From Acidobacteriota bacterium (GTDB lineage: Bacteria > Acidobacteriota > Holophagae > Holophagales > Holophagaceae): 64,000 nucleotides of DNA. Location: positions 9,465 to 73,464 of the forward strand of contig JAJYRN010000013.1 in the NCBI GenBank assembly GCA_021794095.1. The letters are read 5' to 3'. Every line of letters starts with the position of its first letter. The stretch's first letter is position 1. The notes beneath the pieces were generated by a model that was not told the DNA's origin, made no database searches, and was given only the letters and a program-made list of their open reading frames with translations. Below, in pieces: positions 11,135 through 30,165 of the stretch. Made by a program: the position numbers and the translations under genes.

Positions 11135-11803
11135 ATGATGCACAAGGGTCCAGTCCTTCTCCTGATCGCTGCGTGGATGGCCATCGGCCTCTTGGCCCAG
11201 CCTCCCGCTAAGCCGGATGTCAAGGCCATCTTTGCGAAAGCCACGGCGGATCTTGAGAAGACGGGCCAAGCTGAACGCGCCATTCATCAGGGGCAGAAGG
11301 CGCCCGACTTTACCCTCCCCGACGCCAAGGGCCACCCTGTCCACCTGGCGGATCTCCTGAAGAAAGGCCCCGTGGTGCTGACCTTCTATCGCGGGGGGTG
11401 GTGCCCCTTCTGCAACCGCCAGCTCAAGAGCTACCAGGATCATCTCGCGGAGATCCGCGCCCTGGGGGCCGAGTTGGTGGCCGTCTCTCCCCAGCTTCCG
11501 GATTTCACCGTCTCGACGGCCGAGAAGGACGCCCTGACCTTTCCGGTGCTCAGTGATGTGGGCAACAAAGTGGCCCGTACCTATGGCCTCGTCTTCCGGG
11601 TGCCGGACGCGGTGATCCCCATCTACCGCCAGTTCGGAGTTGATCTGGAGAAGCGGAACGGCGACGCGTCCCACGAGCTGCCCATGCCCGGAACCTACAT
11701 CATCGGCCGCGACGGGATCGTCCGGCTCTCCTACGTCCAAGCCGACTACACCAAGCGGCTTCCCGTCGAGGATCTGCTCGCGGGGTTGCGGAAGATACGC
11801 TGA
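11135..11803 (+). CDS. Peroxiredoxin-like (AhpC/TSA, PRX-like2) protein with signal peptide
   Basis: APDFTLPD, VVLTFYRGGWCPFCNRQL, ELPMPGTYIIGRDG. GGAG RBS before ATG 11135. Confidence 0.88.
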   Translation: MMHKGPVLLLIAAWMAIGLLAQPPAKPDVKAIFAKATADLEKTGQAERAIHQGQKAPDFTLPDAKGHPVHLADLLKKGPVVLTFYRGGWCPFCNRQLKSYQDHLAEIRALGAELVAVSPQLPDFTVSTAEKDALTFPVLSDVGNKVARTYGLVFRVPDAVIPIYRQFGVDLEKRNGDASHELPMPGTYIIGRDGIVRLSYVQADYTKRLPVEDLLAGLRKIR

Positions 11804-11845
11804 TCTGAACGAGGGGGGACCGCCTGTCCGCCTTCGGCTCGCGAC
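11801..11845 (+). repeat. Partial copy of the 99-bp hairpin repeat
   Basis: TGATCTGAACGAGGGGGGACCGCCTGTCCGCCTTCGGCTCGCGA; begins at the stop codon of the peroxiredoxin-like gene. Confidence 0.85.
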
Positions 11846-11873
11846 GATGCAGGCTGGAACAGCCGAGGTGCCT

Positions 11874-12299
11874 GTGAACCGTGCTGCGCTGAAAGATGAA
11901 GTCTTCATGAACATGGCGCTGGAGTTGAGCCGCCTCGGAACCTGCTGCCGGTTGCAGGTCGGGGCGGTGTTGCTGCGCTCGGATGGGGGCATCGCGGCGG
12001 CGGGCTTCAATGGCGCGCTGCCGGGTATGCCGCACTGCACGCCCGGTACCTGCAAGCCCGGCCAGCGCTGCCTGCACACCAGCCACGCGGAAGAGAATGC
12101 CCTGGGCTTCTGCGATGGCCCCGTGGCCACGGCCTACGTCACCCACGAACCCTGCCTCGTCTGCACCCGGGCCCTGGTGCGGCGCGGGGTGCGTCGGGTG
12201 GTATTCCGCCATCCCTACGTCAGCATCGCGGAGCAGGAACGGATCGAACGGCAGGCGATCCTCGACCACTTCGCCGTCCGCTGGGAGTGTTTGACCTGA
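11874..12299 (+). CDS. dCMP deaminase/ComEB-like cytidine deaminase family protein
   Basis: TCCRLQVGAVL, GFNG, HAEENAL and HEPCLVC zinc motifs. GTG start after GAGG (alternative ATG at 11847). Confidence 0.85.
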   Translation: MNRAALKDEVFMNMALELSRLGTCCRLQVGAVLLRSDGGIAAAGFNGALPGMPHCTPGTCKPGQRCLHTSHAEENALGFCDGPVATAYVTHEPCLVCTRALVRRGVRRVVFRHPYVSIAEQERIERQAILDHFAVRWECLT

Positions 12300-12411
12300 A
12301 CGAGGGGGGACCGCCTGCTCACCTTCGGTTCGCGATGTCCCCCCTCGTGCACCCCCACGGGACGTTCCGGCCAAGCCGGAACATCCCGTCTGGCCTGAAC
12401 GAGGGGGGACC
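12292..12411 (+). repeat. 99-bp double-hairpin repeat, one full unit plus the start of a second
   Basis: GAGGGGGGAC at 12302 and 12401 (period 99); hairpins GAGGGGGGAC/GTCCCCCCTC and ACGGGACGTTCCGG/CCGGAACATCCCGT. Confidence 0.9.
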
Positions 12412-12421
12412 GGGCGGAGGT

Positions 12422-13373
12422 TCAGATGCCGCGGGTCTCCCAGGTGGGCACGGGCGCGGTTTCCAGGGTCAGTTCGGTCCCGTCATCCAGCACCAGCACG
12501 GTGCGTGGTCCCGGGCGGATCTCCATGATGGTGCGTCCCCGCAGGCGGTCCCCGGTGTCGCGCTGCCAGGGGATGCCCACGGGGTAGGTCTGGCGGTAGG
12601 CCTCGACCAGGGGCTCGAGGCTGGCGCAGAGCTGGTCCAGCGCCTGGCGGAAGGCGGTCCGGAACCCTTTGGGGGGGATTGGATCCAGCCCCGCGGCGGC
12701 CAGGAAGGTCTCCGGCCCCACGGGCCGCTGGGTGGCTGGGGTTTCCGTTTGCCAGCAGCGGTGGCTGTCCAGGGTTTCGCTTTCGAGGACCACGGCGCGA
12801 TCCCGATGGATGCCCAGCCAGAGGGACACCCGCCCGCAGGCGGTGCCCTGGCCTTCGAAATCGAGGGGTTGCTGGCCATCGTCCTGGAAGACCACGGCCC
12901 GGAGGGGCAGCCATTCGAAGGTCTCCACCACCTTGTCGGTCACAGGCCCGGTGCTGCCCCGTCGCAGCTCGGCCACGGCGTTGGCAAAGGCCTGGCGGAG
13001 GGTGGGCGAGGCAGATCACGCCTTCGGGCACGCCCAGGGCATCCAGAGCCAGGGGAGGTTCGTGCCAGCCGGCCGTCAGGGCCGGTACCACCTGCTGGAA
13101 CAGGATCAGGGCGGGATCCCAGTCCCAGTGCCGGCTGGGCTCGTAGCCCAATTCCCGGCAGAGGTCGAACCAGGGGGAACCCGGTGCGGCATCTCCCGGA
13201 CCATAGATGGCGTGGCCATCCAGGAAGATCCGGCAGCCGGGGCCTGAGGGCGGAAGGCGGCTGATGACCACCTCGTGGCGGCCCAGGGTGGCCAGGTCCG
13301 TCTCCTGGTACGGATGATCCTCCCGCCGCATCACCTTCAGCGGCGCGCCGAGGATCCAGGCATCCAGAGCCAC
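12422..13373 (-). pseudogene. Hypothetical protein split by a +1 frameshift near 13010
   Basis: GGAGGG RBS and GTG 13373 start a high-GC3 frame up to GVIC. Good codon usage then continues in the +1 frame (SPTLRQAFANAVAELRR...) to TGA at 12422. Confidence 0.55.
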
Positions 13374-13451
13374 GTATGCCCTCCGTGGATGGGAAACGTG
13401 GGGCCTGAAGGCTGATCCGTCAAGGAAATAAAGGGATTTGGTGGTTGAAAA

Positions 13452-15566
13452 TCAATTCAGCTTCGTCAGCGCGATGCCGGGGTAGTAGTGGGTGAGGATC
13501 TGCTCGAAGGTGGCGCCTTCCAGGGCCATGCCATAGGCGCCGGTCTGGCACATGCCTACGCCATGCCCCCAGCCCCGGCCGTAGAAGATCCAGTGGCGGT
13601 CAGCCCCCTGGCCCACGGTGAGGTAGCGGAAGACATTGTCCTTCAGGCCCAGCAGGCCCCGGATGTGCATGCCGTGGAGCCGGTGCGGTCGGCCCCGGTC
13701 ATCCACCAAGGTCGCCTCCAGCACCCGCCCTTCGGCATCGTGCTGAAGGCGGAGGGTGCGGATCCCCTTCACGGCCAGCCGCTTCTGCACCAGGGCCAGG
13801 AGGTCGGCCTCGGAGTATTCCACGCGCCAGTGGGCTGAGGGGCTGTAGCGGTCCCAGGCCGCGCCATCGGGATCCAGGCGGCGCACGAGAATACGGGCCG
13901 GGCCGCTGGCGGGGAGCCACATCAGCCGGTCTCCCACCTGGATCTCCGCCTTCGACACCAGCCGCAGGGAGCCATCCGGCGCTTTTTCCGCCAGGAGGAG
14001 ATCCGGCGCCAGCGCCAGGGGTTCGGGGCCGGCGTTCTTGCGCCGCACCTGGCGATCCAGGAGGAGGGTGCCTTCGCCAGGCGCGGAAGGGCTGAGGTCA
14101 TCCCAGAGCCGCGCCAGCACCTGAAGGGCATCCTGAAGGGTGGGGCCCCGGCGCGCGAGCCAGGCCCCGGCCGGTACCAGGCCGCGCCGGCTGAGGAATT
14201 CGGCCAGCAGGCGATCCCGCCCCGGCAGGCCATCGGCCTGGAAATAGGCCGCATCCTGGGGGCGTTCCTGGCCTTCCACGAGCTGGTCGAAGCCGAGGGC
14301 CCGGGCCAGGGCCAGGTAGAGGTTTCCGCTCGCCGGGAGCGGACGCGGCGCCATCCCGAGGTGCTGCTGGAGGGCGAGGACCGGCGCGGCGAGGCGGGCG
14401 GCCGTGGCGGGCGCATCCAGCACGTTCGGGTCGAGCCACGCGGCCGGAATGATGCCGTCCGCGAGGCGGAGCAGATCCCAGCTCAGCCAGGGCTGGCTGG
14501 CCGCGGCGGGGACCGGGACGCCCGAGGCGAAGGGAAGGGTGAGCGGCTTGGCGGGATAGTCGGGCACGCCCTTGAGGTAGGGCGCGTTGCCTCCGAAGAC
14601 CTGGGATACGTCCACCGTGTGTCCGCCGCAGTTGGCCATGAAGAGCGCCAGGATGGGCTTGCCGCCGTAGGTGGCGATGACGCCGGCTGTCTCCTGCACG
14701 GCCCGGTCCGTGAGTGCCTGCTCCGCATCCCGGCCGCCATAGACCTGATCGGCCACGGTGTCGGTCATGTCGAAGCCATCCTTCGCGTGTTTGCCCAGGT
14801 TGGCGATGGCGTAGGTGCGGGCCGCCACCGCCTGGGCCTTGAGCGCTTCCAGCGAGGGGAACTCCCAGGCGCCCATCTCCTTGGGCACCACGCCACGCAG
14901 GTAAGTCTCCAGATCCAGGGTGTTCACCGCGGCGAGCCGCCCCTGGGCATTGGGGAAGATCTCCACCTTGCCCCGGTAGCGGCCCTTGCCGACGAGGGTG
15001 GTCAGCTCGCCGGTCGGCTTCAGCCAGACGCCGTCGAGGGGCAGGGGGCGGCGCTCGTAGGCTTCGGTGATGGCATAGAGGGCGCGGCCTTTGCGGGGTG
15101 GCACGGTCAGGGGTTCGGAAGAGACCCAGAGCTCCTCCAGCCCCAGATCCTGGAGCTTGTGGAGCAGGGGTTCCGCCGCCGCGAGGGTCTGGAAATGGCC
15201 GGTGAGCACGCGCCAAGTGTCCGCATCCGGCACCTTCACCCGGTCCGGCACTTCACCGGCGGCGCGCAGGCGGGCCATGAGCCTCTCGGCGGCCTCCAGG
15301 GCGAGGGGATGGCTCACCTGCACCCGGTATTCCTCCGTGGGATCGGAGATGCCTTTGCTGTCCCACCAGATCCGGAGCTTCTCGCCCGGCGCCACGGCCA
15401 TCAGCGGGGTGCCGGCCCGGTCGCAGACCTGGCCGCCGCCCTCCAGCTGGATCACCCATTCCGAGGCCTGGGCCCCAAGCCCGATGCGCACCGTGGGCTC
15501 GGCGGCACGGATGGGGAGGCCCTGAAAAAGGAGAAGGAACAGGACGGGAAGAGAGAGGCGGAACAT
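13452..15566 (-). CDS. SpoIID/LytB-domain peptidoglycan enzyme with SPOR domain
   Basis: Signal peptide; SPOR-like YRVQV...WRVLTGHF; YLRGVVPKEMG, EALKAQAVAARTYA, GRGWGHGVGMCQTGA...ILTHYYPG. Confidence 0.9.
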   Translation of the reverse strand: MFRLSLPVLFLLLFQGLPIRAAEPTVRIGLGAQASEWVIQLEGGGQVCDRAGTPLMAVAPGEKLRIWWDSKGISDPTEEYRVQVSHPLALEAAERLMARLRAAGEVPDRVKVPDADTWRVLTGHFQTLAAAEPLLHKLQDLGLEELWVSSEPLTVPPRKGRALYAITEAYERRPLPLDGVWLKPTGELTTLVGKGRYRGKVEIFPNAQGRLAAVNTLDLETYLRGVVPKEMGAWEFPSLEALKAQAVAARTYAIANLGKHAKDGFDMTDTVADQVYGGRDAEQALTDRAVQETAGVIATYGGKPILALFMANCGGHTVDVSQVFGGNAPYLKGVPDYPAKPLTLPFASGVPVPAAASQPWLSWDLLRLADGIIPAAWLDPNVLDAPATAARLAAPVLALQQHLGMAPRPLPASGNLYLALARALGFDQLVEGQERPQDAAYFQADGLPGRDRLLAEFLSRRGLVPAGAWLARRGPTLQDALQVLARLWDDLSPSAPGEGTLLLDRQVRRKNAGPEPLALAPDLLLAEKAPDGSLRLVSKAEIQVGDRLMWLPASGPARILVRRLDPDGAAWDRYSPSAHWRVEYSEADLLALVQKRLAVKGIRTLRLQHDAEGRVLEATLVDDRGRPHRLHGMHIRGLLGLKDNVFRYLTVGQGADRHWIFYGRGWGHGVGMCQTGAYGMALEGATFEQILTHYYPGIALTKLN

Positions 15567-15578
15567 GCCTCCATTGGA

Positions 15579-16535
15579 TCATGGACGCCCAGGGGGAGCC
15601 GTGGTCCAGGCTTCGAGGGCCTGCCACCTCCGAGCGCGGAGGGCTTCCACGTCGAGCAGGTCCCCGGCCGGACCCCGCCGGTGGACCAGCAGAGCCAGGC
15701 AGGCCCGGTCCGAGGGGCGGAAGAACAGGGCGGGCCCCGTATAGCCGAAGTGGAACCACCAGCCCGAGGGAATCTTCGGGGGGCCCTCCGGCCTGGGCGC
15801 GGGCGGCGGCGCGGCTTCGGTGGACGCTTCGATGACCTGGCAGCCGATGCCTTCCGGTACACGCGACAGAAGCTGTCCAAACCGTCCTGGGCCGTCGAAG
15901 GCTCTCTGGAGCCCCAGGCCCCAGAGGACGCCCTCTTCACCACAGGCGGTCTCGACGGCCATCCGGATGGGCCAGCCTGCGGCCACCCAACGTGCCAGGG
16001 TGGTCTGCAACTGGGGCGCGGTGGTCCCGAAGCCCGCATGGCCAGTCATCCCGGCACGGGCATTGGCATCGTGGGGAAGGTGCGGATCCCGCGCCGGCAA
16101 GGGGGACTCGGTGGCGAGGGCCCAGGCGATGGCATCGGGGCCATCCGGAATGGTCACGGGCGCCTCGGACCAGGGCGCAGGCTGGAGGCCCAGGGCGGCG
16201 CCCAGCTTCGGGAAGGGCACCCCCGTCTCCCGCTGGAGCAGCTCGGCCAGCAACCGGTAGTTCAGGTCCGAGTAGGTGGCGAGCCCCGGCGTGGCTGGCC
16301 GCAACAGGGGATGACCGGCCACCGGCCGCCGGAGCTGGGCCGCGACGGATTCCCCGGTGAAGGGCCGCCAGGGGGGCAGGCCGGAGCTATGCGACAGCAG
16401 CTGACGGACCGTCAGCGGCCTCTCCCGGTCGTGGAAGCCCAGGGGCCAGCGGCGGTCCGCATCGAGGTTGAGGAAGGCCAGGGCCAGCGGCGCCGTCACC
16501 AGGGGTTTGGCGAGGGAGGCGAGGTCGTAGAACAT
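15579..16535 (-). CDS. Serine hydrolase, beta-lactamase/class C esterase family
   Basis: SxxK (ASLAK), LLSHSSGLP, YSDLNY, GHAGF, HFGYTG. ATG 16535 lies just after the upstream stop. Confidence 0.8.
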   Translation of the reverse strand: MFYDLASLAKPLVTAPLALAFLNLDADRRWPLGFHDRERPLTVRQLLSHSSGLPPWRPFTGESVAAQLRRPVAGHPLLRPATPGLATYSDLNYRLLAELLQRETGVPFPKLGAALGLQPAPWSEAPVTIPDGPDAIAWALATESPLPARDPHLPHDANARAGMTGHAGFGTTAPQLQTTLARWVAAGWPIRMAVETACGEEGVLWGLGLQRAFDGPGRFGQLLSRVPEGIGCQVIEASTEAAPPPAPRPEGPPKIPSGWWFHFGYTGPALFFRPSDRACLALLVHRRGPAGDLLDVEALRARRWQALEAWTTAPPGRP

Positions 16536-16542
16536 CGCGGCC

Positions 16543-17508
16543 CTAGGCGCGTCCCAGCTCCGCCAGGCTTTTCGCGACGGCCTTCTGCACCTGGTCTGCC
16601 ACGCGCATGGCCTCCTGCCCTTCTTCCCAGGTGACCCCTTCCGTGCCGAGGCCCAGACAGGCGGCATGGAAGGCTTCGATTTCCAGGCGCAGGGGCTCGC
16701 CCTCCTGGATATCCACCTGTTCAGGCTGGACCTGCGGTCCCTCGGGGCCCATCACCAGACGCAACAGCTCCAGCTTCTGGGCCGCGAAGTCCAGGCTGGC
16801 GTATTCCTTGTCGCCGAAGGCCCGCAGGGTGCGCTCCTTCTTGCGGGCCACGCGGCTGGCGGTGACGGTGGCGAAGGCGCCGCCCGCGAACTTCAGGCGG
16901 GCATTCACCAGGTCGGCGTAGGGGGTGAGCACCGGCACGCCCACGGCCTCCACGTCCACCACGGGACGCCCGACGAGGGCGCGCAGCAGATCCAGGTCGT
17001 GGATCATCACGTCCATCACCACATCCACTTCGAGGCTCCGGGCCGGGAAGGGCGACACCCGCACGGCTTCCAGGAAGCGGGGCTTGAAGCCGCGGTCCCG
17101 CAGGGCGGCGACGGCGGGATTGAAGCGTTCCAGGTGGCCCACCTGCGCGACCAGCCCGGGATTCGCCTGCCGGGCGGCGGCGAGGGCTTCCAGGAGGGCC
17201 AGGCCTTCCTCCAGGGTGGCCGCCAGGGGCTTCTCCATGAGGATGTGCTTACCGGCCTTCAGGGCCTGGAGGCCCAGGGCGTGATGAAAGCCGGTGGGCG
17301 CGGCGATCTGCACGGCATCCACCATCGGCAGCGCCTCGGCCAGCGTGGCCATCCAGGGCGCGCCCGACTTGGCCGCGATCTCCGGCCCGCGGATGGGATC
17401 CGGATCCACCACCACCGCCAGTGTCGCCTCGGGCGCCGAGGCGGCGATGCGGGCGTGATGCTGGCCCAGGTGCCCGACTCCAACGACGGCCACGCGCAGC
17501 TTGGACAT
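16543..17508 (-). CDS. Gfo/Idh/MocA oxidoreductase (GnnA-like UDP-GlcNAc dehydrogenase family)
   Basis: VAVVGVGHLG, ILMEKPLA, QVGHLERFNPA, DVMIHDLD. Confidence 0.85.
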   Translation of the reverse strand: MSKLRVAVVGVGHLGQHHARIAASAPEATLAVVVDPDPIRGPEIAAKSGAPWMATLAEALPMVDAVQIAAPTGFHHALGLQALKAGKHILMEKPLAATLEEGLALLEALAAARQANPGLVAQVGHLERFNPAVAALRDRGFKPRFLEAVRVSPFPARSLEVDVVMDVMIHDLDLLRALVGRPVVDVEAVGVPVLTPYADLVNARLKFAGGAFATVTASRVARKKERTLRAFGDKEYASLDFAAQKLELLRLVMGPEGPQVQPEQVDIQEGEPLRLEIEAFHAACLGLGTEGVTWEEGQEAMRVADQVQKAVAKSLAELGRA

Positions 17509-17574
17509 GGTGCCTCCCGACGGACGAGCCTAGCAGGGCTGGTAAGCTCAAAGGCTCACACTCACGAGGCGACC

Positions 17575-18057
17575 ATGAACCTCCACCTGGAAGCTGCCCA
17601 TGTCCTCCGCTGGCTGCACATCGTGGCCATTGCCACCGGTGGAGGCGCCGCCGTGGTGGCGCTGCTGCTGTCCGGGTTTGAAGATGGGCGCGAGGATCTG
17701 CGCGGCCTCGCTGCCACGGTCTGGGCCAAGGTCGTGGCCTGGGCTTTCCGCATGGCCGTGGTCTTCGGTGCGCTGCTGCTCGTGGTCCTGCTTCAGCAGG
17801 GGGACAATCCTTTCGTCGTGGGCCGGGCCTTTACGATCAAGCTGGTGCTGGCATTGATTCTCCTGGGACTATCGGAGATGACGCCGAAGGCCCTGGCCGC
17901 CGGGAAACGTGGATCGGCCCTCTTGGTCGTGGTGCTCTTCCTCACGACCACCTTTGTGATGTACAACCAGGGGCTCTTCGTTTCGGCGTCTCAGGTGCTC
18001 CCAGCATCTCAGGTGATTCCGCCGCCCCAGGCCACCGCCGGTCCCCAGGCCCATTGA
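17575..18057 (+). CDS. Hypothetical 4-TM membrane protein
   Basis: MNLHLEAAHVLRWLHIVA...; GAGG RBS; four hydrophobic segments including FTIKLVLALIL. Confidence 0.7.
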   Translation: MNLHLEAAHVLRWLHIVAIATGGGAAVVALLLSGFEDGREDLRGLAATVWAKVVAWAFRMAVVFGALLLVVLLQQGDNPFVVGRAFTIKLVLALILLGLSEMTPKALAAGKRGSALLVVVLFLTTTFVMYNQGLFVSASQVLPASQVIPPPQATAGPQAH

Positions 18058-18104
18058 TGCTTCTCTGACCCTCGGGATGGGGCCCGATGATGGGCCGCCA
18101 CGAA

Positions 18105-19096: not shown

Positions 19097-19816
19097 TCAG
19101 CCCCGCAGGGCCCGGCGTGACACGCGGGCGAAGGGGGGCGCCTCCTGGCGGAGCATGGGACGCTCGAGCAGGAACTGGTACCACTGCTCGCCGTAGACCT
19201 TCATCTTCATCGCCTTGCCATTCTGCAGGAGGTTCCGGTTGGTGACGAGCCGCTCGTCGCCCTTGCAGACGCCCAGGCCCTTGTTGAGGATCTCGATGGC
19301 CCGGTCGCGCTCGCCCATCTCGGCCAGGACGTAGGCGTAGACGGCATAGAGCAGGCTTTCCTTCTTTCCGCTCTTGAGGGCCAGGTCGAAGGTCGCCTTC
19401 GCCTTCTTCTTCTCGCCACGCTTCCACTGGAGGATGGCCAGCATGGCCTTGGCGATGTAGTGCTGCATGGAGGCGGAGGCCAGCAGCGGTTCGGCCTCAT
19501 CGTGCTTCTTGCGGATGTACTGGATGACGCCGATCTGGCCATCAATGCTGCTCTTGACCAGGAACTGCCGGGGGCCCAGGCGATAGCCCTCCCGCATGAT
19601 CTCGATGGCCGGGTCGAACTGCTGCTTCTTCAGCAACTCGCCGGCCCGGGTGAAGATCTTCTCCAGCTTGTTCTGCACCTGCCGCCCCTGCCAGATGAAC
19701 ACCGCCCCACCAGCCACCAAGGCGAAGGGCACACTGATCCAGGGACTGATGTGCAGCAGGCTCGAAAGCAGGACCACGGCGAGGGCAGCGCCCAGTCCGA
19801 GCAGGAGGTTGATCAC
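19097..19816 (-). CDS. Membrane-anchored TPR-like protein
   Basis: Two N-terminal TM segments followed by TPR-like helices. GTG 19816 with GGAG RBS (track starts at 19852). Confidence 0.7.
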   Translation of the reverse strand: MINLLLGLGAALAVVLLSSLLHISPWISVPFALVAGGAVFIWQGRQVQNKLEKIFTRAGELLKKQQFDPAIEIMREGYRLGPRQFLVKSSIDGQIGVIQYIRKKHDEAEPLLASASMQHYIAKAMLAILQWKRGEKKKAKATFDLALKSGKKESLLYAVYAYVLAEMGERDRAIEILNKGLGVCKGDERLVTNRNLLQNGKAMKMKVYGEQWYQFLLERPMLRQEAPPFARVSRRALRG

Positions 19817-19914
19817 GGAGACTCCGTTGGGGCGGCCCGCTGTTTGGGCCAAAGGCCCATTTTATCGGTGTTCGCGCCGTTTGGCCACGCCGGGTTGTCA
19901 GGCACCATGCAGGG

Positions 19915-20173
19915 GTGCGCGAGGGGGGACATCGCGAGCCGAAGGCGAGCAGGCGGTCCCCCCTCGTTCAGGTCAGACAGGGTGCCCCGGCTTCGCCGGG
20001 ACGCCCTGTGGGGGTGCAGGAGGGGGGACATCGCGAGCCGAAGGCGAGCAGGCGGTCCCCCCTCGTTCAGGTCAGACAGGGTGCCCCGGCTTCGCCGGGA
20101 CGCCCTGTGGGGGTGCAGGAGGGGGGACATCGCGAGCCGAAGGCGAGCAGGCGGTCCCCCCTCGTTCAGGTCA
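19915..20173 (-). repeat. Tandem array of the 99-bp double-hairpin repeat (about 2.5 units)
   Basis: GAGGGGGGAC at 19921, 20020 and 20119 (period 99); the array starts at the ybeY stop codon. Confidence 0.95.
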
Positions 20174-20905
20174 GGCGATGACGCCGCTCCGGGAAGGGGC
20201 CGCCCGCTTCCGGCGGACGACCCGGCGGGTGGCGGGGGCTGCGGCCGCCGCTTCCTTCCGGGGACGCCCGGGACCGCGCTTCACGGGGGTCTCCTTGGGC
20301 TTGGGGGCTTTCCGGATTTTCGCTTTCTGGTCTTTCTTGGCCCGTTCGCGCCGCACCAGGGCGGCGGCGGCCCGGCCGGTGACCACCACCCGGGTGCCGT
20401 TCTTCAGCCTCTTGACCTTGCTGCCGGGCTTCCGCCCGCGCTTGAGGGTCATGGAGAGCGGTTCTTCCTGCAGCAGTTCGCGCTCCAGTTGTTCCTGCAA
20501 CGCCATCATTTCCCCGTGGTCCTTCTCGTGGTCGAAGCCGCACAGGTGAAGAAAACCATGGATCACAAGGGTTTCAACCTCACGCCGGCGGCTGACACCG
20601 AACTTGCGGGCCATTTTATCCGCCATGGGGAGGCTGATGACGATATCGCCCAGATGAGGGAAGGCGCCCTTCTCAGCAGCTGAAGGGAAACTCAGCACAT
20701 CCGTCGTGGTGTTTTTTTCACGATGGATGCGGTTGAGTTTTCTCATGCCGACATCATCCACATAGGTCAAGGAGACGCCCTGGGCTTCCGGCGCAAGGCG
20801 ATCCCGGAGCTGATGAAAAAGAGCGCCGAGGGAATGTTCACCAGGGCCGCGCATTTTGCTTCGACTGGACCAGTCAATCAGGAAGGGCAATGTCGTTGTG
20901 TCCAT
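20171..20905 (-). CDS. ybeY: rRNA maturation endoribonuclease YbeY with long basic C-terminal tail
   Basis: MRKLNRIHREKNTTTDVLSF, LGDIVIS, LVIHGFLHLCGFDHE; about 90-aa Lys/Arg-rich extension. Confidence 0.92.
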   Translation of the reverse strand: MDTTTLPFLIDWSSRSKMRGPGEHSLGALFHQLRDRLAPEAQGVSLTYVDDVGMRKLNRIHREKNTTTDVLSFPSAAEKGAFPHLGDIVISLPMADKMARKFGVSRRREVETLVIHGFLHLCGFDHEKDHGEMMALQEQLERELLQEEPLSMTLKRGRKPGSKVKRLKNGTRVVVTGRAAAALVRRERAKKDQKAKIRKAPKPKETPVKRGPGRPRKEAAAAAPATRRVVRRKRAAPSRSGVIA

Positions 20906-23884: not shown

Positions 23885-23941
23885 GGAGGCTCCTTCAGAA
23901 GGGTCCAGGCCAGACGCGCGCCTGGCCGCGGGCCCTTGGCG

Positions 23942-24670
23942 TCAGGCGGGTGGGGCGAAATAGAGGAGCCACGCCTGGGCGCCTCCCATGGGGACCGGGG
24001 CCTGGGCGTAGCGGGTGATCATCGGGGCTTCCCCTGATTCGAGAAGGACCAGAAGGCCTTCATGCAGCGCGGGGTCGGTGCCCAGAAGCACCTGGATGGA
24101 CCGCCAGCCCAGCAGGAAACCGTCCGCCAGGCGGTCCTTGAGCCGCTCGATGGCATCCTGCCGGGAGTGCCCGCGGAGGTCGAGGATGCCGTCCACCTCC
24201 AGGGCCATGCCCGCCGCGAGCTGAAAGCGCACCGGACGCGCGGAGAGTGGCGGCGGAAGCGCCGGTTCCACCGGCGGGGGCGGCGCCGGGTCGGGTTCCG
24301 CCACCGGCTCGGGAACTTCGAGCACCGGAACCGGAGCTGCCGGCCGAGGCGGCGGGAGGGGTGTGGACTTCGGGCGCACGGCCGGCCGGGCCAGGGGCTT
24401 GAGGCCCTTGAGATCCGCGACAGCTTCCGCGAAGGTGTCCGGCGGTGGGGGAGGGGGTTCTACAGGTGCCGCCTGAACCTCCGGAATCCGGGTGGGAGCC
24501 GGGCGGGCCTGCCGCCGCCCCATGGCCGCCAGGAATAGGGCGTCCTCTGTGTTCAAATCTGCGGGTGTCAACGGCTTATCAGGAGGTTTGGGCACCGGCT
24601 TCGGAGGGGGTGGCATGGGCGCCTCCCCCAACTGCTGCTTCAGTTTCGCGAGATCCTGTTTCCAGACCAT
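23942..24670 (-). CDS. Smr/SmrA-like domain protein with Pro-rich linker
   Basis: DALFLAAM and FAEAVADLKGLKPL N-terminal motifs; C-terminal LDLRGHSRQDA...GGAQAWLLYF. Confidence 0.7.
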   Translation of the reverse strand: MVWKQDLAKLKQQLGEAPMPPPPKPVPKPPDKPLTPADLNTEDALFLAAMGRRQARPAPTRIPEVQAAPVEPPPPPPDTFAEAVADLKGLKPLARPAVRPKSTPLPPPRPAAPVPVLEVPEPVAEPDPAPPPPVEPALPPPLSARPVRFQLAAGMALEVDGILDLRGHSRQDAIERLKDRLADGFLLGWRSIQVLLGTDPALHEGLLVLLESGEAPMITRYAQAPVPMGGAQAWLLYFAPPA

Positions 24671-24876
24671 GGCCGCCTCAGTGGTCCAGGGTAGGCCATG
24701 CGGAGCTGATGCCAAAGGCCTGCTGTTGCAATCCCGCACCACTGGCTGGGGCATCCTGCGACGGATCCATGCCGGATCAACCGCGGTCAGGCCTGTCCGT
24801 TCCAATCGTGGGGGCGCTTTCCCGCATCTGGCACGCGCTTCGCTCCTAGACTGTTCACACCGCCCACGGAGGCCCC

Positions 24877-25527
24877 ATGCGCCGCATCGCTCTGCTGACC
24901 GCCCTTCCGCTGCTCCTGGCTTCGGGTTCTGCCCTCCGAGCCCAGTCGCCCCACATGGGGTTCAGCCTCAATCTGCTGATCCCGACGGGAGATTTCAACA
25001 GCAAGAGCTACCCGCCCTATTTCGATGCTTCAGGCAACCTCATCCCCACCCAGACGGACAGCTATGACCTGGGCCTGGGTGGGACGTTCTTCCTCAGTTT
25101 CCCGGTGGACCGCAGCGTGGCCTTCCGGTTGAGCTTCAGCGGTGCCGCCAATTCCGGGAGCAACACGGCCCCGGGGCAGGCGACGATCAACCTCCGCCAT
25201 TCCGAATTCAACCTGGGCGGCGAGGTGGAACTCTTTCCGGAAGGGACGGCCTACCGGCACCGGGGCCTCTATTTCCTGGGGGGCATTTCTGCGGATTTCG
25301 AGCAGTTCGACCGCAGCTTCGGGGATCCCGGATGGGATTACACCAACACCACCCGCAAGAGCCGGATGGGGGGCACAGTTGGGATTGGCCACACCTTCGG
25401 CTTCGATGCCGGGTCGCGGTTCACCCTCGAATGCGTGTTCCACAAGACCTTGACCGGCAACAACCTGAACGCGGGTGATCCTCCCAACACCGATTACGTC
25501 CGGCTGGGCTTCGGCTGGGTGTTCTGA
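24877..25527 (+). CDS. Outer-membrane beta-barrel protein (OmpA/OmpW-like, 8-stranded)
   Basis: Signal peptide, alternating hydrophobic strands, terminal YVRLGFGWVF. Confidence 0.85.
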   Translation: MRRIALLTALPLLLASGSALRAQSPHMGFSLNLLIPTGDFNSKSYPPYFDASGNLIPTQTDSYDLGLGGTFFLSFPVDRSVAFRLSFSGAANSGSNTAPGQATINLRHSEFNLGGEVELFPEGTAYRHRGLYFLGGISADFEQFDRSFGDPGWDYTNTTRKSRMGGTVGIGHTFGFDAGSRFTLECVFHKTLTGNNLNAGDPPNTDYVRLGFGWVF

Positions 25528-25534
25528 AGCGAAG

Positions 25535-25570
25535 CAAGAAAGCGGCCCCCGTCCGGGGGCCGCTTTCTTG
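25535..25570. terminator. Bidirectional rho-independent terminator
   Basis: CAAGAAAGCGGCCCCC-GTCC-GGGGGCCGCTTTCTTG between convergent genes. Confidence 0.8.
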
Positions 25571-25588
25571 TCTCGCTTCCGGGCTTTT

Positions 25589-26461
25589 CTAACGCCGTTT
25601 TACGGCGTGTTTCCGCTTGCTCCGCGGGGCCATGGGCCTCGGCATGGGGGATGGCGTCGCCTCCTGGCCCAGGAGGTAGCGCACGAAGTGGGACACCTCG
25701 GCGTTGCCCGGATCCAGTTTCTCCAGGCGGCGGGCGTAGGCCAGCCGTTCCGCCTGGGGGCGGGAGTCGTCGCCCTTCACCTGAATGAGCTTTTCGGCCA
25801 CGTAGCGGGCAGGCCCGCCGGCTTGGGCGATGTCCGTTTTCTCCTGACCCAGGAAGGCCTGCCAGGCTGACAGGGCCTGGGTGGTGCTCGCCTGGTCCTG
25901 TTTCAACGTGGCCAGGATGCTGGCGATGTCCGCCAGGGATTTCTGGCTGTGGGCAATGGCCGCTTGTTGCTCCTGGACGAAAATCTTCAGCTGTTGGTGG
26001 AGCTTGATCTGGTCCTGCGTGAGCCCCGGTGCGTCATCCAGAGCCTTCAGGCGAAGCTGCTGAGTCGCCAGGCCATCCTGGAATTCCTTGAGCTTGGCCT
26101 CATGCTCGGCGCGGGTCTTGGCCAGCAGAGCCGTCGCGTTGGTGAGGTTCTCGGTCGCGGCGGCCTGGGCCCTCTGCAGATGGGCCACCGCGTCCTCCCA
26201 ACTGCCTTCGGACACGCACGCCCGGGCCGCGAGCCCCTGGAGGGCGACCAGGGCGTGCATGTCGTTGTAGTCGGAAGGATTGACGGAGACGCCCTCGCGG
26301 CCCAGAAGCGCCTCGATGCCCTTGCGGACGATGGGCGCATCGCCCCGGTCTATCTGGGCTTCCCAGGGGATGCGGACTTCACGGAGCCGATCCGACAGGG
26401 ACTGGCCCGCGAGGGCGGTCGCCAAGGCCAGAAGGGCAGCGGTGGGCAGGCGCTTCAGCAC
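25589..26461 (-). CDS. Secreted alpha-helical coiled-coil/TPR-like protein (paralog B)
   Basis: GTG 26461 starts a signal peptide (LKRLPTAALLALATALAG); EGSWEDA, long coiled coil, RRLEKLDPGN, basic tail. Confidence 0.75.
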   Translation of the reverse strand: MLKRLPTAALLALATALAGQSLSDRLREVRIPWEAQIDRGDAPIVRKGIEALLGREGVSVNPSDYNDMHALVALQGLAARACVSEGSWEDAVAHLQRAQAAATENLTNATALLAKTRAEHEAKLKEFQDGLATQQLRLKALDDAPGLTQDQIKLHQQLKIFVQEQQAAIAHSQKSLADIASILATLKQDQASTTQALSAWQAFLGQEKTDIAQAGGPARYVAEKLIQVKGDDSRPQAERLAYARRLEKLDPGNAEVSHFVRYLLGQEATPSPMPRPMAPRSKRKHAVKRR

Positions 26462-26468
26462 GGGTACC

Positions 26469-27506
26469 TTACTTCCGCTTTTTGGGGTGGTACTTGCGAA
26501 GGACGGGCTTGTGTTCAACTACAAAAGGCTTCTTGCCCTCGACCAGGTTGTGCAGGACTCGCTCGGCCATCGGGTTGCCCGGATCCAGGACCAGCAGGCG
26601 GTTGACGAAGTCCACCTGTTCCATGGGGGAGGACAACCCCGTGATGTTCTCGTGCTTCCGCAGGACAGCATCCACCCAGGTGCGGTTGCCCACCACCTTC
26701 ACCCGCCGTTTGGCTTCCTGCGCGTTGAAGTCGGCGATCTCCTTGGCCTGGGCGGCCGTATTGGCCTTCACCTTGGCCAGATCATCCGACGCAGCCTTGA
26801 CCATGTCAGCGGCTTCCCGGGTGTTCTCGGTCATGTACTTGGAGACGATGGCGGCCTTGGCGGCATTGTCCTGGTGCAGCTTGATGGTGGCGGCGATCTG
26901 GGCGATCTCCTGCTGCTGCTCCGTAGCCACCTTGCCGCGGGCGTTGATGTCTTCGGCTTCCTGCTTGGTGAGGGTCTTCTTCTTGGCGGCCACATCCGCC
27001 TTGACCTGGTTGAATTCGGTGGTGAACGCCTTGAGCTTGGCCTCCAGGTCCGCCTGGCGGGGCTGGTTGGCGGCAATGTAGGCCTTCCCATCGGCGACCG
27101 CCTTGTCCCACACCGCCTGGATGGGCTGCTGGCCCTTGGCCAGGTCGGCCTGGAAGGTCTGGGCGAGGGTCAGGCGCTTGGCCTGGATGTCCTGGGCCTT
27201 TTCCCACTGGCCGGCGGCGATGGCGGTGCTGGCCCACAGACGGTACATGGACATCAGACCCTGGGTCTGATCAAGACTCCGGACAATGGTTTGGAGGTTC
27301 GAGGCGTCAAAGGCGGGGGGCTGGGCCGGGATCAGCGCGCCGGCCTTGGCCATGGCGTCCTGGGCCTTGAATTCCTTCAGGAGCTGGTTGACGGAAGGCA
27401 GGGCGGCATTGAACTGCTGCCGCAGATCCGGTGGGGCCGGAGCGGGCGCGGGGGCCTGGGCGACCAGCGCCAGGGCGGGAAGGAAGACAAGGGTGGCCGG
27501 ACGCAT
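26469..27506 (-). CDS. Secreted alpha-helical coiled-coil/TPR-like protein (paralog A)
   Basis: GGAG RBS, signal peptide; AGQWEKA, long coiled coil, RLLVLDPGN, basic tail. Confidence 0.78.
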   Translation of the reverse strand: MRPATLVFLPALALVAQAPAPAPAPPDLRQQFNAALPSVNQLLKEFKAQDAMAKAGALIPAQPPAFDASNLQTIVRSLDQTQGLMSMYRLWASTAIAAGQWEKAQDIQAKRLTLAQTFQADLAKGQQPIQAVWDKAVADGKAYIAANQPRQADLEAKLKAFTTEFNQVKADVAAKKKTLTKQEAEDINARGKVATEQQQEIAQIAATIKLHQDNAAKAAIVSKYMTENTREAADMVKAASDDLAKVKANTAAQAKEIADFNAQEAKRRVKVVGNRTWVDAVLRKHENITGLSSPMEQVDFVNRLLVLDPGNPMAERVLHNLVEGKKPFVVEHKPVLRKYHPKKRK

Positions 27507-27599
27507 GGGATCTCCAGGAAAGTCCAACCCCCAGGGTAAACGAAAGGAGTCCGCCTGTCCCCGGGTCGGTACCCGGGGCAGGCCTCCTTGTGATCCAGC

Positions 27600-29525
27600 T
27601 CAATCCCCCGTGCGCTGGGCTTCCAAGTGGAGCCACTCGTTTTCCAGGGTTTCCAGGGCGGCGGCGACGGCGGCCCGGTCCTCCAGGGCCCGGTGCCCGG
27701 GGCTGTCGGAACGCAGGAAGGCCGCCGGATCCGCGAGCAGGGCATCCAGGGCGGCGACCTGCGCCTGCAAAGCCTCGAGCGCCGTCTCGACCTCCAGGAG
27801 GCGCCGCTGCTCCTTCTGGGTGAGTCCCGGTTTGCGGGGGCGGGGGGCGGTTTCCCGGACCTTCGCCGCGGGTTCCGCCTGGGCCAGGGCGGCCTGGGCG
27901 GCCCGCTCTCCCCGGAGCGACCGCACGGTGGAGGGGGGGCCTTCGTAGAGTTCCCAGCGCACGGCTCCCGCCGGGTTCCAGGCCAGGGTATGGGTCGCCA
28001 CCTGGTCCAGAAAGAACCGGTCGTGGCTCACCACCAGCAGGGTGCCGGGGAAGGCCATCAGGGCTTCCTCCAGGTTCTGGAGGGTGGGGATGTCCAGGTC
28101 GTTGGTGGGTTCGTCCAGCACCAGCAGATCCACGGGGGTGAGCATGGCCTTGGCCAGGAGCAGCCGGTTCCGCTCCCCGCCACTGAGGGTGTCGGCAAGG
28201 CGCGCCTGCTGGTCCACGGGGAAGCCGAACCGGGTGAGGTAGACGTGGGCCAGGATGGTGGAGCCGCCCACATTCACGACCGCGGCCCGGTCGGCCAGGT
28301 TGTCCAGGATGCTCCGCCGCCCGTCGAGTTCGCCCCGGCCCTGGGAGATGGCTGCTACGGCCAGCTTTGGATGCCGGATGACATCCCCGGCGTCCGGCGC
28401 CCACTCCCCTAGCAGCAGGCGAAGCAGGGTGGACTTGCCGCACCCGTTGGGACCGAGCAGCGCCAGGCGCAGGCCGCGTTGGAGGTTGAGATCAAGACCA
28501 CCGATCAATTCTGGGCCGCCCGGGTGGGCAAAGCGCAGGCCCTCAGTCCGCAGCAGGGCATCGCTGCGGTTCCCCCCCGCCGCGAAGGTCAGGCTTTGGC
28601 GGGTTTCCATCCGGGTCCGGTCCTCCACGGTGTCTTTCAAGTCGAGCACCTCCTGGATGCGCAGCTTGGATTTCCGTGTGCGGGCCTTCGCGCCCCGGCG
28701 CAGCCAGGCCATTTCCCGGCGAAGGCGGTTCTGCATGTGCTCGGTCAGCCGCGACTCGCGGAAGGCACGGTCCGATTTCTCCAGGAGGTAGTCGCTGTAG
28801 CCCCCGTCATAACTGCGGAGGACGCCGTCCTCCAGTTCCAGCATCCGCGTCACCACGGCATCGAGCAGGTGGCGGTCATGGGTGATGAGCAGCAGGGCGC
28901 CTTCGAAGGTCTGGAGCCACGCTTCGAGTTTCTCCACCTGGTCGGGGTCCAGGTGGTTGGTGGGCTCGTCCAGCACCAGCACATCGGGATCCTTGAGCCA
29001 GGCCTGGGCCAGGGCCACACGTTTGCGCCACCCACCCGACAGCGATTCGACTGGGGCCGCCAAGTCGGCGAGCCCCCAGATGACGGCCGCTTCCTTCAGC
29101 CTCGGTTCCAGATCCCAGCCCAGGTGATGGAGCTGGTGCTCGACCACCGCCAGTTCCTGGTGCAGGCGATCCATTTCGCTGCCGGTGGCTCCGGGCAGGC
29201 GGTCATGGATGGACTGGTGCCGCGCCAGCAGGCTCCGGTGATCGCCCAGCGCTTCTTCCAGGGCGCTCCGCACCGTGGCGCCCGGCGCAAAGGGGGGCTC
29301 CTGGCTCAGGCGGGCTACGCGTAGCCCCTGCGTGACCACCACCTCGCCGGTGTCAGGCGCTTCCTCACCCGCCAGCACCCGGAACAGCGTGCTCTTGCCG
29401 GCACCGTTCCTGCCAATGAGTCCCACTTTCTCCTGCTGGAAAAGGCCGAGATTCAGGCCGTCCAGGACGGGGTCGGCCCCGAAGCGTTTCGTGACATTGA
29501 TCAAACTCAAGGCAATGGGTGGCAC
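27600..29525 (-). CDS. uup: ABC-F family ATP-binding protein Uup
   Basis: Two ABC domains (GRNGAGKS/LSGGWRKR/LDEPTNHLD; GPNGCGKS/LSGGERNR/LDEPTNDLD) and a C-terminal KPGLTQKEQRRL coiled coil. Confidence 0.92.
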   Translation of the reverse strand: MPPIALSLINVTKRFGADPVLDGLNLGLFQQEKVGLIGRNGAGKSTLFRVLAGEEAPDTGEVVVTQGLRVARLSQEPPFAPGATVRSALEEALGDHRSLLARHQSIHDRLPGATGSEMDRLHQELAVVEHQLHHLGWDLEPRLKEAAVIWGLADLAAPVESLSGGWRKRVALAQAWLKDPDVLVLDEPTNHLDPDQVEKLEAWLQTFEGALLLITHDRHLLDAVVTRMLELEDGVLRSYDGGYSDYLLEKSDRAFRESRLTEHMQNRLRREMAWLRRGAKARTRKSKLRIQEVLDLKDTVEDRTRMETRQSLTFAAGGNRSDALLRTEGLRFAHPGGPELIGGLDLNLQRGLRLALLGPNGCGKSTLLRLLLGEWAPDAGDVIRHPKLAVAAISQGRGELDGRRSILDNLADRAAVVNVGGSTILAHVYLTRFGFPVDQQARLADTLSGGERNRLLLAKAMLTPVDLLVLDEPTNDLDIPTLQNLEEALMAFPGTLLVVSHDRFFLDQVATHTLAWNPAGAVRWELYEGPPSTVRSLRGERAAQAALAQAEPAAKVRETAPRPRKPGLTQKEQRRLLEVETALEALQAQVAALDALLADPAAFLRSDSPGHRALEDRAAVAAALETLENEWLHLEAQRTGD

Positions 29526-29595
29526 GCGGGGTTCCTCGGACCTTCCAGAATCCCATGGTTGAGGGGATCCTTGCCCCAGAGATCGTGAGGGTGCC

Positions 29596-30165
29596 ATGGG
29601 CCTCCAGGATGAACTTCAGCTGTCGAAACTGCCGTCCCCTGGGGTGCAGCTCACGCTCCAGATCATGCTCACGCGGGAGGCCGTGGTCCGGCTGCAGGAG
29701 CGGCTGTTCGAAGCCCATGGGCTGACCATCCAGCAGTACAACGTGCTCCGCATCGTCCGGGGGGGCCCCACCAAGGGGCACCCCATCTATGAAATCGAGC
29801 ACCGCATGATCTACCGCTTTGCCAATGTCACCCGGCTGGTGGACCGGCTGGAAGTCCAGGGACTGCTGAAGCGCGTCCAGGACGCGAAGGACCGCCGGGT
29901 GAGCCGGGTGGTGATCACGCCGAAGGGGAAACGCCTCATGGATGGCCTGGATGGGCCAGTCCAGGACCTCACGGGCCGCATGACGGGATGTTTCTCGGAG
30001 GCGGAATGCCTCGCCCTGGCGGACAGCCTGGAGCAGCTGCGCGAGCATTGTTTCCGGGAAGAGGCGGGTCAGACGCGGTGTCCCGGCTTGGCCGGGACAC
30101 CGCGTGGGGGTGCACGAGGGGGGACATCGCGAGCCGAAGGCGAGCAGGCGGTCCCCCCTCGTTGA
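29596..30165 (+). CDS. MarR family transcriptional regulator with repeat-derived C-terminal tail
   Basis: GLTIQQYNVLRIV, NVTRLVDRLEVQGLLKR..DAKDRRVSRVVITPKG; the last about 30 codons are a 99-bp repeat copy. Confidence 0.9.
   Translation: MGLQDELQLSKLPSPGVQLTLQIMLTREAVVRLQERLFEAHGLTIQQYNVLRIVRGGPTKGHPIYEIEHRMIYRFANVTRLVDRLEVQGLLKRVQDAKDRRVSRVVITPKGKRLMDGLDGPVQDLTGRMTGCFSEAECLALADSLEQLREHCFREEAGQTRCPGLAGTPRGGARGGTSRAEGEQAVPPR
30068..30165 (-). repeat. Full copy of the 99-bp double-hairpin repeat inside the marR 3' end
   Basis: ACGCGGTGTCCCGG/CCGGGACACCGCGT followed by GAGGGGGGAC...GTCCCCCCTC. Confidence 0.9.

Follow-up and report, generated by a model that had tools for sequence, protein, structure and literature searches.

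The REP and BIME repeats of Enterobacteria and Pseudomonas are GC-rich palindromes of high copy number, located mostly just 3′ of genes. They form mosaic clusters of a conserved palindrome and linker motifs, comprise species-specific sub-families that evolve in concert and serve as landing sites for insertion sequences. REP palindromes are 20–40 nt in size and have a GTAG foot; their orientation is alternating or inverted (a REPIN consists of two inverted REPs), and the cognate RAYT gene is usually flanked by repeats. Rhizobium-specific intergenic mosaic elements (RIMEs) are intergenic units of ~100 nt with two different large palindromes, present in tens of copies; to our knowledge, no relationship with stop codons has been described for them. 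Miniature elements derived from IS200/IS605 (palindrome-associated transposable elements) possess subterminal hairpins, lack inverted ends and target duplications and are found in one orientation beside a short specific motif. Classical MITEs, such as Correia and RUP, are small, non-coding, dispersed and polymorphic in their presence; they have terminal inverted repeats, a fixed target duplication and a parent IS that shares their ends. MIRUs are 46–101-nt units, often tandem, located within operons and oriented with transcription, which couple an internal ORF to the downstream start by a −4 overlap. They appear to be mobile and to insert with reading frames abutting gene boundaries, with little harm (PMC12548453).

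The 99-nt repeat unit considered here is present at four loci of a 64,000-nt stretch of DNA (the window), all of them located where the preliminary description had placed them (Table 1). The repeat family, which belongs to Holophagaceae (Geothrix/Holophaga, Acidobacteriota), is undescribed, as had been suspected: the only Rfam match in the window at the gathering score is RNase P RNA, the array gave nothing better than E = 4.6, and no description was found in full-text literature searches. The unit is probably a non-autonomous, orientation-specific mobile DNA element of Holophagaceae, without a recognisable transposase; on the best reading, its behaviour is close to that of REP/BIME, IS200-type and MIRU elements.

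Read on the strand co-directional with the upstream gene, the unit consists of a left end TGAYATSAAC (dividing as TGA-YATSAAC), a 46-nt hairpin (H1), a CCCCC spacer (with GTGCACCCCC-A between the hairpins), a 33-nt hairpin (H2) and CTGR. H1 is an 11-bp G/C stem around conserved internal loops, CCTGCTC and TCGCGAT, with a small apical stem. H2 is a stem of free sequence with a 3-nt loop and a conserved tip, GGC-NAA-GCC; it is the variable hairpin recognised earlier, with a stem of 15 bp instead of the 14 bp then given. The consensus of its loop is GCCAAGC (CAA 43 times and GAA seven times among 73 unique H2 sequences), and the GCGAAGC loop of the preliminary description, confined to the 19915–20173 array and a few other copies, is a minority variant and not a feature of the family. 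H1 and H2 share no sequence relationship, and the folds of both strands of the unit are more stable than those of shuffled controls (z −2.8 to −6.0). The unit corresponds to 33 codons, with TGA at both ends in one frame; the left-end ATG (CATGAAC) is replaced by ATC (CATCAAC) in about half of the copies. Terminal inverted repeats are absent, the left end TGAYATSAACGAGG and the right end ...ACGTCTGA not being inverted copies. No U-tract stands behind a hairpin: H1 is followed by GTGCACCCCC and H2 by CTGR. Adjoining units are always arranged head-to-tail, never as inverted pairs, and the junctions within arrays have CTGN in common.

Table 1. Repeat units and hairpins in the window, in positions of the whole stretch
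Feature	Position	Strand	Description
Decayed partial unit	11801–11844	+	Left end TGATCTGAAC, H1 5′ arm and apex; ends after GCTCGCGA
Complete unit	12292–12389	+	Left end TGACCTGAAC, spacer GTGCACCCCC
H1 of the 12292 unit	12301–12347	+	Outer stem CGAGGGGGGAC/GTCCCCCCTCG
H2 of the 12292 unit	12357–12389	+	15-bp stem, loop CAA
Truncated second unit	12390–12413	+	First 24 nt (CTGGCCTGAACGAGGGGGGACCGG), directly after the 12292 unit
Tandem array	19915–20173	−	Two complete 99-nt units and an H1-only unit, period exactly 99
Array unit 1	20075–20173	−	H1 20118–20164; H2 20076–20108, loop GAA on the minus strand
Array unit 2	19976–20074	−	H1 20019–20065; H2 19977–20009
Array unit 3	19915–19975	−	H1 only (19920–19966), without H2
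Single complete unit	30069–30172	−	H2 30073–30105 (perfect 15-bp stem); H1 30115–30161; left end CTAATGATCAAC

The TGA at 11801–11803 is the stop codon of an upstream AhpC/TSA-family gene (10988–11803); the orthologue of this copy in the close relative G050 has decayed in another way. A dCMP-deaminase gene (11874–12299) stops at the second TGA of the 12292 unit (12297–12299). This site is empty in several outgroup species, where the convergent genes are just 17–38 nt apart and the deaminase ends in ...RWEQLGEA*, as against ...RWECLT* here. The TGA of array unit 1 (reverse complement of 20171–20173) terminates a YbeY-family gene (20171–20905); unit 2 shows 100% identity to unit 1 over their common length, and unit 3 lies upstream of a TPR gene (19097–19852). 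The TAA of the 30069 unit (reverse complement of 30169–30171) is the stop codon of a transglutaminase-like gene (30169–31947), TCAG at 30069–30072 (CTGA on the minus strand) represents the ancestral site and contains the original TGA stop, and a convergent MarR ORF (29596–30165) reads through the unit.

The dispersal first seen in the window holds for the whole 2.99-Mb genome, where nhmmer found 80 copies of H1 at 59 loci; together with 88 matches to H2, this far exceeds chance occurrence. Within the class, a covariance model, R1, matched 80 of 121 genomes; every one of these belongs to Holophagaceae, and they come from 11 of 27 genera. The named matches are Geothrix species, Holophaga foetida and Holophagaceae MAGs. 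Fifteen near-identical copies occur in H. foetida, and one complete genome carries at least 32. The closest dispersed copies in the genome under study differ at no fewer than 5 of 102 positions, which gives no hint of very recent movement in it.

The compensatory changes reported earlier at four stem positions are real and far wider. Across species, double-sided changes are seen in 13 of the 15 H2 pairs, 93% of H2 cells are paired (44–49% with the partner slid), and none of 500 shuffles reached the observed covariation score, which upholds selection on structure. Within the genome, stem position 4 of H2 is CG in 10 cases, TA in nine, GC in nine and AT in two, with one mismatch. H2 stems remain paired despite sequence change, also between orthologues. 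In the window, the arms pair perfectly in the 30069 unit, as had been stated for all variants; the other two variants are not fully paired, with a C.A mismatch at stem position 7 and, in the array variant, also a T.G pair. H1 is indeed near-invariant in its core: eight of 11 pairs tested across species never vary, and its unpaired bases are invariant across genera. In its inner stem, G30-C38 alternates with A30-T38.

The earlier assignment to REP/BIME-like or MITE-like elements stands as a likeness, given the dispersal and insertion polymorphism, and not as membership of REP/RAYT or classical MITEs, since the defining features of both are lacking. All of the REP/BIME traits of copy number, base composition, location, mosaic build, sub-families and insertion outlined above recur here. 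The hairpins, however, are 46 and 33 nt long without GTAG, units are direct, and no RAYT is present in this genome or most of the genus; as the unit overlaps a stop codon, it is also not strictly extragenic, unlike REP. An insertion in an H1 loop is an IS110-derived MITE; in this genome it has a parent IS, and its inverted ends, of 18 nt, are clear. The RIME appears similar in unit size, build and copy number, and differs in sequence and phylum. The traits listed for IS200/IS605 miniatures are likewise found, an apparent lack of target duplication among them, whereas a Y1 transposase, related hairpins and a significant replication-strand bias are not. Classical MITEs are matched in size, non-coding nature, dispersal and presence/absence polymorphism, and not in terminal inverted repeats or an end-sharing parent IS; a fixed target duplication is also not apparent. 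As with MIRUs, the unit is oriented with transcription and its boundary lies at a neighbouring gene's stop codon, at about 34 of 59 loci; in contrast to MIRUs, the link is to stop codons, the left-end ATG is not conserved and its frame ends at neither the right end nor the next start, two long hairpins dominate, the phylum is different and no sequence similarity was found. Integron attC sites, whose paired core sites RYYYAAC and GTTRRRY form the R box in cassette arrays beside intI, were rejected: the left end has just ...SAAC, the opposite end lacks a complementary GTTRRRY, and copies are dispersed at 59 loci and inserted without a gene. Intrinsic (Rho-independent) terminators were rejected too, on the missing U-tract after H1 or H2 and a unit located between overlapping operon genes.

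Movement is indicated mainly by comparison of this genome (G000) with G050 (about 93% identity). One 99–102-nt unit is gained or lost as a block between these close relatives: three units are present here and absent in G050 (C3:7709, C4:47167 and C11:39569) and one is present in G050 and absent here (L066), with net differences of 99, 100, 100–102 and 100 nt, respectively, and otherwise intact flanks. At 30069–30172, both G050 and the outgroup G041 lack the 100–102 nt and keep TCAG; as the outgroup site is also empty, this unit is an insertion in the present lineage. Such outgroup polarisation applies to one of the four loci, and to only two of the polymorphic sites. The sequences of the empty sites are ATGA, CTGG, TCGA and CTGA, and the junction-adjacent bases differ more than expected; the cut sites are thus placed only approximately. 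Filled sites are flanked by CTGR-like tetranucleotides, with a surplus of 0, 2, 0 and 0–2 nt after removal of one unit, and no consistent target duplication is seen at polymorphic sites. Units are gained next to a YTGA/CTGR-like motif, which in most cases is a gene's TGA stop. Once the element is in place, its first triplet (TGA or TAA) is the stop codon, and the original TGA stands in frame at the right end, 33 codons farther downstream. At least one insertion split two overlapping operon genes, the next start codon being 3 nt past the element. Local multiplication of units also produces head-to-tail arrays with a period of 99; the two genomes compared differ in array copy number (4 versus 2 and 1 versus 2), and the private variants common to units of one array indicate local duplication. 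Decay consists of deletions that take out one hairpin or span short direct repeats; some G050 orthologues have lost only H1 and others only H2, and one 21-nt deletion in the inner part of H1 is found repeatedly.

Across the 59 loci, a co-directional coding ORF ends within −7 to +8 of the left end at 42. The first base of the stop lies at element position 1 in 28 loci, at 0 or 2 in three more and at 6 in six; at about 34 loci, the gene takes its stop codon from the element's TGA or TAA. The base preceding the left TGA is C in 18, T in seven, A in one and G in none. In other species, 17 of 41 copies have a stop (TGA, TAG or TAA) 12–13 nt ahead of the G-run. Effects on the RNA have been reported for REP elements near stop codons in E. 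coli. A host RNA function that keeps the element here, whether in mRNA 3′-end protection, operon segment stability or slower translation termination, is a possible, albeit unlikely, explanation; two stable hairpins beginning 7 nt past the stop codon would then form an exonuclease barrier. The sense orientation directly after stops, here and in other species, and the stability of both strands agree with it, as does the pairing of H2 maintained through sequence change. Several insertions are kept at orthologous sites in two to four species, and this retention, with H2 different yet paired, could instead reflect host-level selection. On the other hand, mismatches on the gene-sense strand (G.U-type 15, A.C 16 in the cross-species set) show no strand preference, unlike RNA-selected helices, and neither hairpin has a U-tract behind it. 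The insertion between overlapping operon genes argues against a strong terminator, 17 of the 59 loci are away from gene ends, and copies are freely truncated.

Y1_Tnp (PF01797, RAYT/IS200) is absent from this 99.25%-complete genome, from G050 and from the complete genome with at least 32 copies. As far as Y1 enzymes are concerned, the lack of a cognate transposase noted for the window extends to the whole genome. In the genus, Y1_Tnp occurs in just eight of 61 genomes, as multicopy IS200/IS605 with no repeat nearby. The IS200 of H. foetida was rejected as a parent (other end hairpins, CCCCCGGCAGAGCCGGGGG; no element nearby), as was the single IS110-family element of this genome, the ends of which are unrelated to the unit. 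Neither a longer autonomous copy among those of H. foetida nor a longer element sharing the unit's ends was found. A Y2_Tnp search, silent in its control genomes, carries no weight.

On these results, an IS200/IS605- or RAYT-type single-strand element, served in trans by a Y1 HUH transposase, is a distinctly improbable reading of the unit. The enzyme would recognise the hairpins on one strand, cut after CTGR and insert the unit 3′ of a CTGR tetranucleotide; since this target sequence also closes the element, head-to-tail arrays would arise on re-insertion. Two subterminal hairpins without terminal inverted repeats or consistent duplication, the orientation fixed relative to the tetranucleotide, the CTGN of each array junction and the presence of IS200 in H. 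foetida, the genome with near-identical copies, are consistent with this. Besides the missing enzyme, the lack of relationship between H1 and H2 contrasts with the paired end hairpins of IS200/IS605, and private variants within arrays point to local duplication. No significant orientation bias was seen against GC skew: the G-rich strand carries the gene sense at 18/51, 21/57 and 24/58 loci, depending on the size of the skew window (p = 0.05, 0.06 and 0.24).

E. coli BIMEs bind gyrase, IHF and Pol I. By analogy, the units might be DNA-level binding sites for a conserved host protein in chromosome organisation or replication, with incidental spread; this reading is very doubtful. The invariant unpaired bases of H1 would suit such a site, and the Watson–Crick preference is equal on both strands, as for a double-stranded or cruciform feature; yet no regular spacing or distribution along contigs was seen, so strict a link to gene orientation and stop codons would not be expected of an architectural site, no candidate protein was found, and copies are lost without obvious constraint. 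A merely local tandem repeat, minisatellite or chance palindrome with no dispersal mechanism, for which the varying array copy number might speak, is scarcely credible in view of 59 dispersed loci, empty sites in relatives and a family-wide range.

For the mobile element favoured here, H1 may be a sequence-specific recognition module for the mobilising protein, with H2 required merely as a hairpin. Integration at the CTGR core would be specific to strand or site, in the manner of HUH single-strand transposition or of small-core recombination, and the mobilising enzyme would be other than a RAYT/IS200 protein encoded in this genome. The family looks old and at present inactive in this genome. 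Selection after integration would retain mainly gene-end insertions, since built-in stop codons would make such insertions harmless.

The 99-nt repeats, in which a hairpin with a near-invariant core (H1) is followed by a second hairpin (H2), are a genuine, hitherto undescribed family of small mobile elements found across Holophagaceae. They are dispersed, insert as exact units, lie in a definite relationship to stop codons, covary in their stems and decay. To our knowledge, small interspersed repeats, well studied in Proteobacteria and Mycobacteria, have hardly been studied at all in Acidobacteriota. A text search of the literature found no report of REP, MITE or interspersed repeats in Geothrix or Holophaga, and the unit has no Rfam match at gathering or permissive thresholds, in agreement with the preliminary description, which had called the family possibly undescribed.

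Inspection and self-comparison of the window recovered the four loci of that description. In the self-comparison, four 99-nt copies at 19905-20201 (spacings of 99 and 99) and 30100-30198 are the reverse complement of 12263-12412 and 11800-11844. The genome containing the window (2.99 Mb, 67% G+C, 28 contigs) carries 80 H1 hairpins at 59 loci, according to an iterated nhmmer search, and an H2 profile gives 88 matches. Most loci consist of a single H1+H2 unit with CTGR at its end; copies reduced to H1 or to H2, or carrying internal deletions, also occur. Thirteen loci are head-to-tail arrays of 2-4 units with a period of exactly 99 nt, and these arrays grow locally, since the units of one array share private variants. 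Further sub-families with the H1 core include 89-90-nt tandem arrays whose second hairpin is different, and a variant, 'H1b', that differs at the apex. The anatomy of the unit and the positions of the features are collected in the table.

Table. Anatomy of the 99-nt unit and features of the window and of the genome containing it (C, contig)
Feature	Location	Strand	Description
Unit, left end		gene-sense	10 nt
H1, outer stem			CGAGGGGGGAC/GTCCCCCCTCG, AT bulge, then CGC/GCG
H1, inner part			internal loop CTGCTC/TC, then GCC-TTC-GGC
Spacer between H1 and H2			GTGCACCCCCA
H2			15 bp + 3-nt loop
Unit, right end			CTGR
Window loci	11801-11844; 12292-12413; 19915-20173; 30069-30172		third locus is an array
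AhpC/TSA gene	window		stop supplied by element
dCMP deaminase	window		C-terminus ...RWECLT* instead of ...RWEQLGEA*
YbeY-family gene	window		stop supplied by element
Transglutaminase-like gene	window		ends ...G-TAA instead of ...N-TGA
Convergent MarR-family ORF	window 29596-30165	+	crosses inserted unit on the strand open in all frames; gains 32-residue tail
72-nt direct duplication	window 18105-18354		copies 178 nt apart, 97% identical; unrelated to 99-nt family
Bacterial RNase P RNA, class A	window 36479-36854	+	279 bits (Rfam search)
Second repeat family, 78-nt unit	window 40000-40233		three tandem copies; ~10 other loci in genome; unit carries H2-like hairpin CAGAAGCCCGGC-GGA-GCCGGGCTTCTG
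Further H1-core sub-families	C3:32022-32336; C13:4940-5070; C6:23852; C16:42562; C20:45354		
IS110/IS1111-family IS (PF01548)	C16:72157-74047, outside window		18-nt inverted ends AGGAGCTGGAACGRAATA
99-nt elements with IS110-family insertions	C26:20242-20583 and C2:9661-9822		pair of sites; one element split by MITE in H1 apical loop, another abutted at its left end by an IS110-family copy

An exact copy of the core GCGAGCAGGCGGTCCCCCC is present in over 100 public genome stretches; nearly all of these belong to Geothrix species, Holophaga foetida or Holophagaceae MAGs, and the three matches outside Holophagaceae lack the remainder of the element. With a covariance model built on the complete unit, 80 of the 121 genomes of the class searched were matched; all 80 fall within a single family and are spread over 11 of 27 genera, and the other families gave no matches, so that the dispersed family proposed earlier is confirmed beyond the window. 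Copy counts per genome from this model are lower bounds (at least ~32 where highest). The core has no match in viral contigs.

The gene-sense strand of the unit is defined as the one reading TGAYATSAAC-GAGGGGGGAC... Both strands fold more stably than shuffled sequence (z -2.8 to -6.0), and the unit has no terminal inverted repeats. Inspection of H1 by eye did not bear out its reading as an integron attC site or as a kink-turn. A set of 36 diverse copies from many species was aligned without difficulty, and 95% of cells are paired in the two-hairpin structure, versus 44-49% with the partners slid. The compensatory changes reported from the window, ascribed there to selection on structure, hold across species: both sides change in 13 of the 15 H2 pairs, with up to four Watson-Crick types per pair, and the covariation score was reached by none of 500 shuffles. 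Within the genome containing the window, H2 stem position 4 is CG in 10 cases, TA in 9, GC in 9 and AT in 2, and the small apical stem of H1 alternates between G-C and A-T. Eight of the 11 pairs of the H1 core never vary in the cross-species set, and its unpaired bases are invariant too. With one hairpin fixed in sequence and the other paired but free, H1 appears to act as a site recognised by its sequence, and H2 to be a hairpin required for shape alone.

Mismatches in H2, read on the gene-sense strand, are A.C more often than G.T within this genome's own sub-family (62 vs 19), but not in the diverse cross-species set (16 vs 15), so the excess reflects shared ancestry, and naming the folded strand from it was abandoned; H1 has no such bias. 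That almost all pairs are Watson-Crick, and that G.T does not exceed A.C, is more suggestive of a DNA palindrome than of a helix selected as RNA.

An ORF that runs in the same direction and has the codon composition of coding sequence terminates within -7 to +8 of the left end of the element at 42 of the 59 loci. The stop is the first triplet of the element (TGA, sometimes TAA) in 28 loci, lies within one base of it in three more and is the second TGA, in CATGAAC/CCTGAAC, at six. In 17 of 41 copies from other species and sub-families, a stop (TGA, TAG or TAA) precedes the G-run by 12-13 nt. The base preceding the left TGA is almost always a pyrimidine (C 18, T 7, A 1, G 0), giving the motif YTGA, the same as at the right end. 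Empty sites read ATGA, CTGG, TCGA and CTGA, and nothing consistent across comparisons of empty and filled sites supports a fixed target duplication. The unit equals 33 codons, with TGA at each end in one frame and the opposite strand open in all three; insertion at a stop therefore leaves the upstream gene with a stop, and a convergent gene reads through. The closest relative (G050, a MAG at ~93% identity) has no unit in the MarR-family ORF, which there runs on into the convergent gene and has a different end point. In Holophaga foetida (L033, L099 and L101), several copies lie directly after terminator-like T-run hairpins, for example at GGGCGGCCCCAGGGCCGCCCTTTCT|CTATGAAAGGGG, and not on stop codons.

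Comparison with G050 revealed three loci, C3:7709, C4:47167 and window 30069-30172, filled in the genome containing the window and empty in the relative, and one, L066, with the opposite state. The net differences are 99, 100, 100-102 and 100 nt, with flanks otherwise collinear. At window 30069-30172, neither G050 nor the more distant G041 has the unit, which identifies an insertion in the lineage of the window's genome; the adjoining TCAG is kept in both. The two convergent genes at window 12292 are separated by just 17-38 nt in several outgroup species. The near-identity of the 15 Holophaga foetida copies indicates a recent burst there. The closest dispersed copies in the window's genome differ at 5 or more of 102 positions, so the family looks old in that genome. 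Other orthologous pairs have lost H1 alone or H2 alone, show a recurrent 21-nt deletion between CTCG repeats or differ in array length. At some orthologous loci, divergence in the H2 stem or at the apex of H1 far exceeds that of the flanks (at C4:214360, the window's genome and G050 differ in their H1 apices); gene conversion among copies, or a site used more than once, is the likely cause.

The likeness to REP/BIME or MITE elements suggested at the outset stands as regards dispersal, mobility and mosaic arrays and fails as regards inverted ends and a Y1 HUH gene, which would encode the RAYT/IS200-type transposase. No such transposase was found in the window's genome, in G050, in 53 of the 61 genomes of the genus or in one complete genome carrying at least 32 copies; a link to RAYT/IS200 is therefore discarded, both here and for most of the genus. 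Holophaga foetida has IS200 copies, with different hairpins and none near the element. Y2_Tnp (IS91-type) gave no match, but control genomes were equally silent. The single IS110-family element of the genome, with further copies at contig ends of C2, C14, C16 and C20, was dismissed as mover: it has its own inverted ends and its own MITEs (~19, dispersed, 255-300 nt), unrelated to the 99-nt unit. Its occasional landing in or beside 99-nt elements resembles the targeting of REPs by insertion sequences. Genes flanked by inverted elements at C8:198-201 kb are ordinary hydrogenase-maturation, sigma/anti-sigma and kinase genes. No longer, possibly autonomous copy was found among H2 hairpins without an adjacent H1 in this genome or among the 15 Holophaga foetida copies, and element orientation is not significantly related to GC skew.

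In behaviour the family resembles REP/BIME, IS200-type and MIRU elements, yet in each case a defining feature is missing. It shares hairpin ends without inverted repeats or duplications with IS200-type elements, mosaic arrays with BIMEs and codon-exact placement with MIRUs, thus joining features usually split among separate classes, without the enzyme on which those classes rely. H1 would be the recognition site, and integration at YTGA may be strand- or core-specific. A speculative reading, to which we give a rather low probability, is that the mover is an enzyme of a type new to miniature elements, perhaps a conserved Holophagaceae chromosomal protein, which reads the invariant H1 loop and integrates at YTGA, with stops preferred and a replacement stop brought along.

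The element breaks short-read assemblies, misleads gene callers, which extend ORFs along its fully open strand, and offers a strain-typing marker for Geothrix and Holophaga. Many proteins have their C-terminal residues changed by it, among them, in this window, the deaminase and the transglutaminase-like protein, as well as the tail of MarR. Should the mobilising protein prove to be new, the invariant H1 offers a ready-made recognition site for finding it, and the proposed mechanism, if true, would make translation stops the basis of a transposition strategy.
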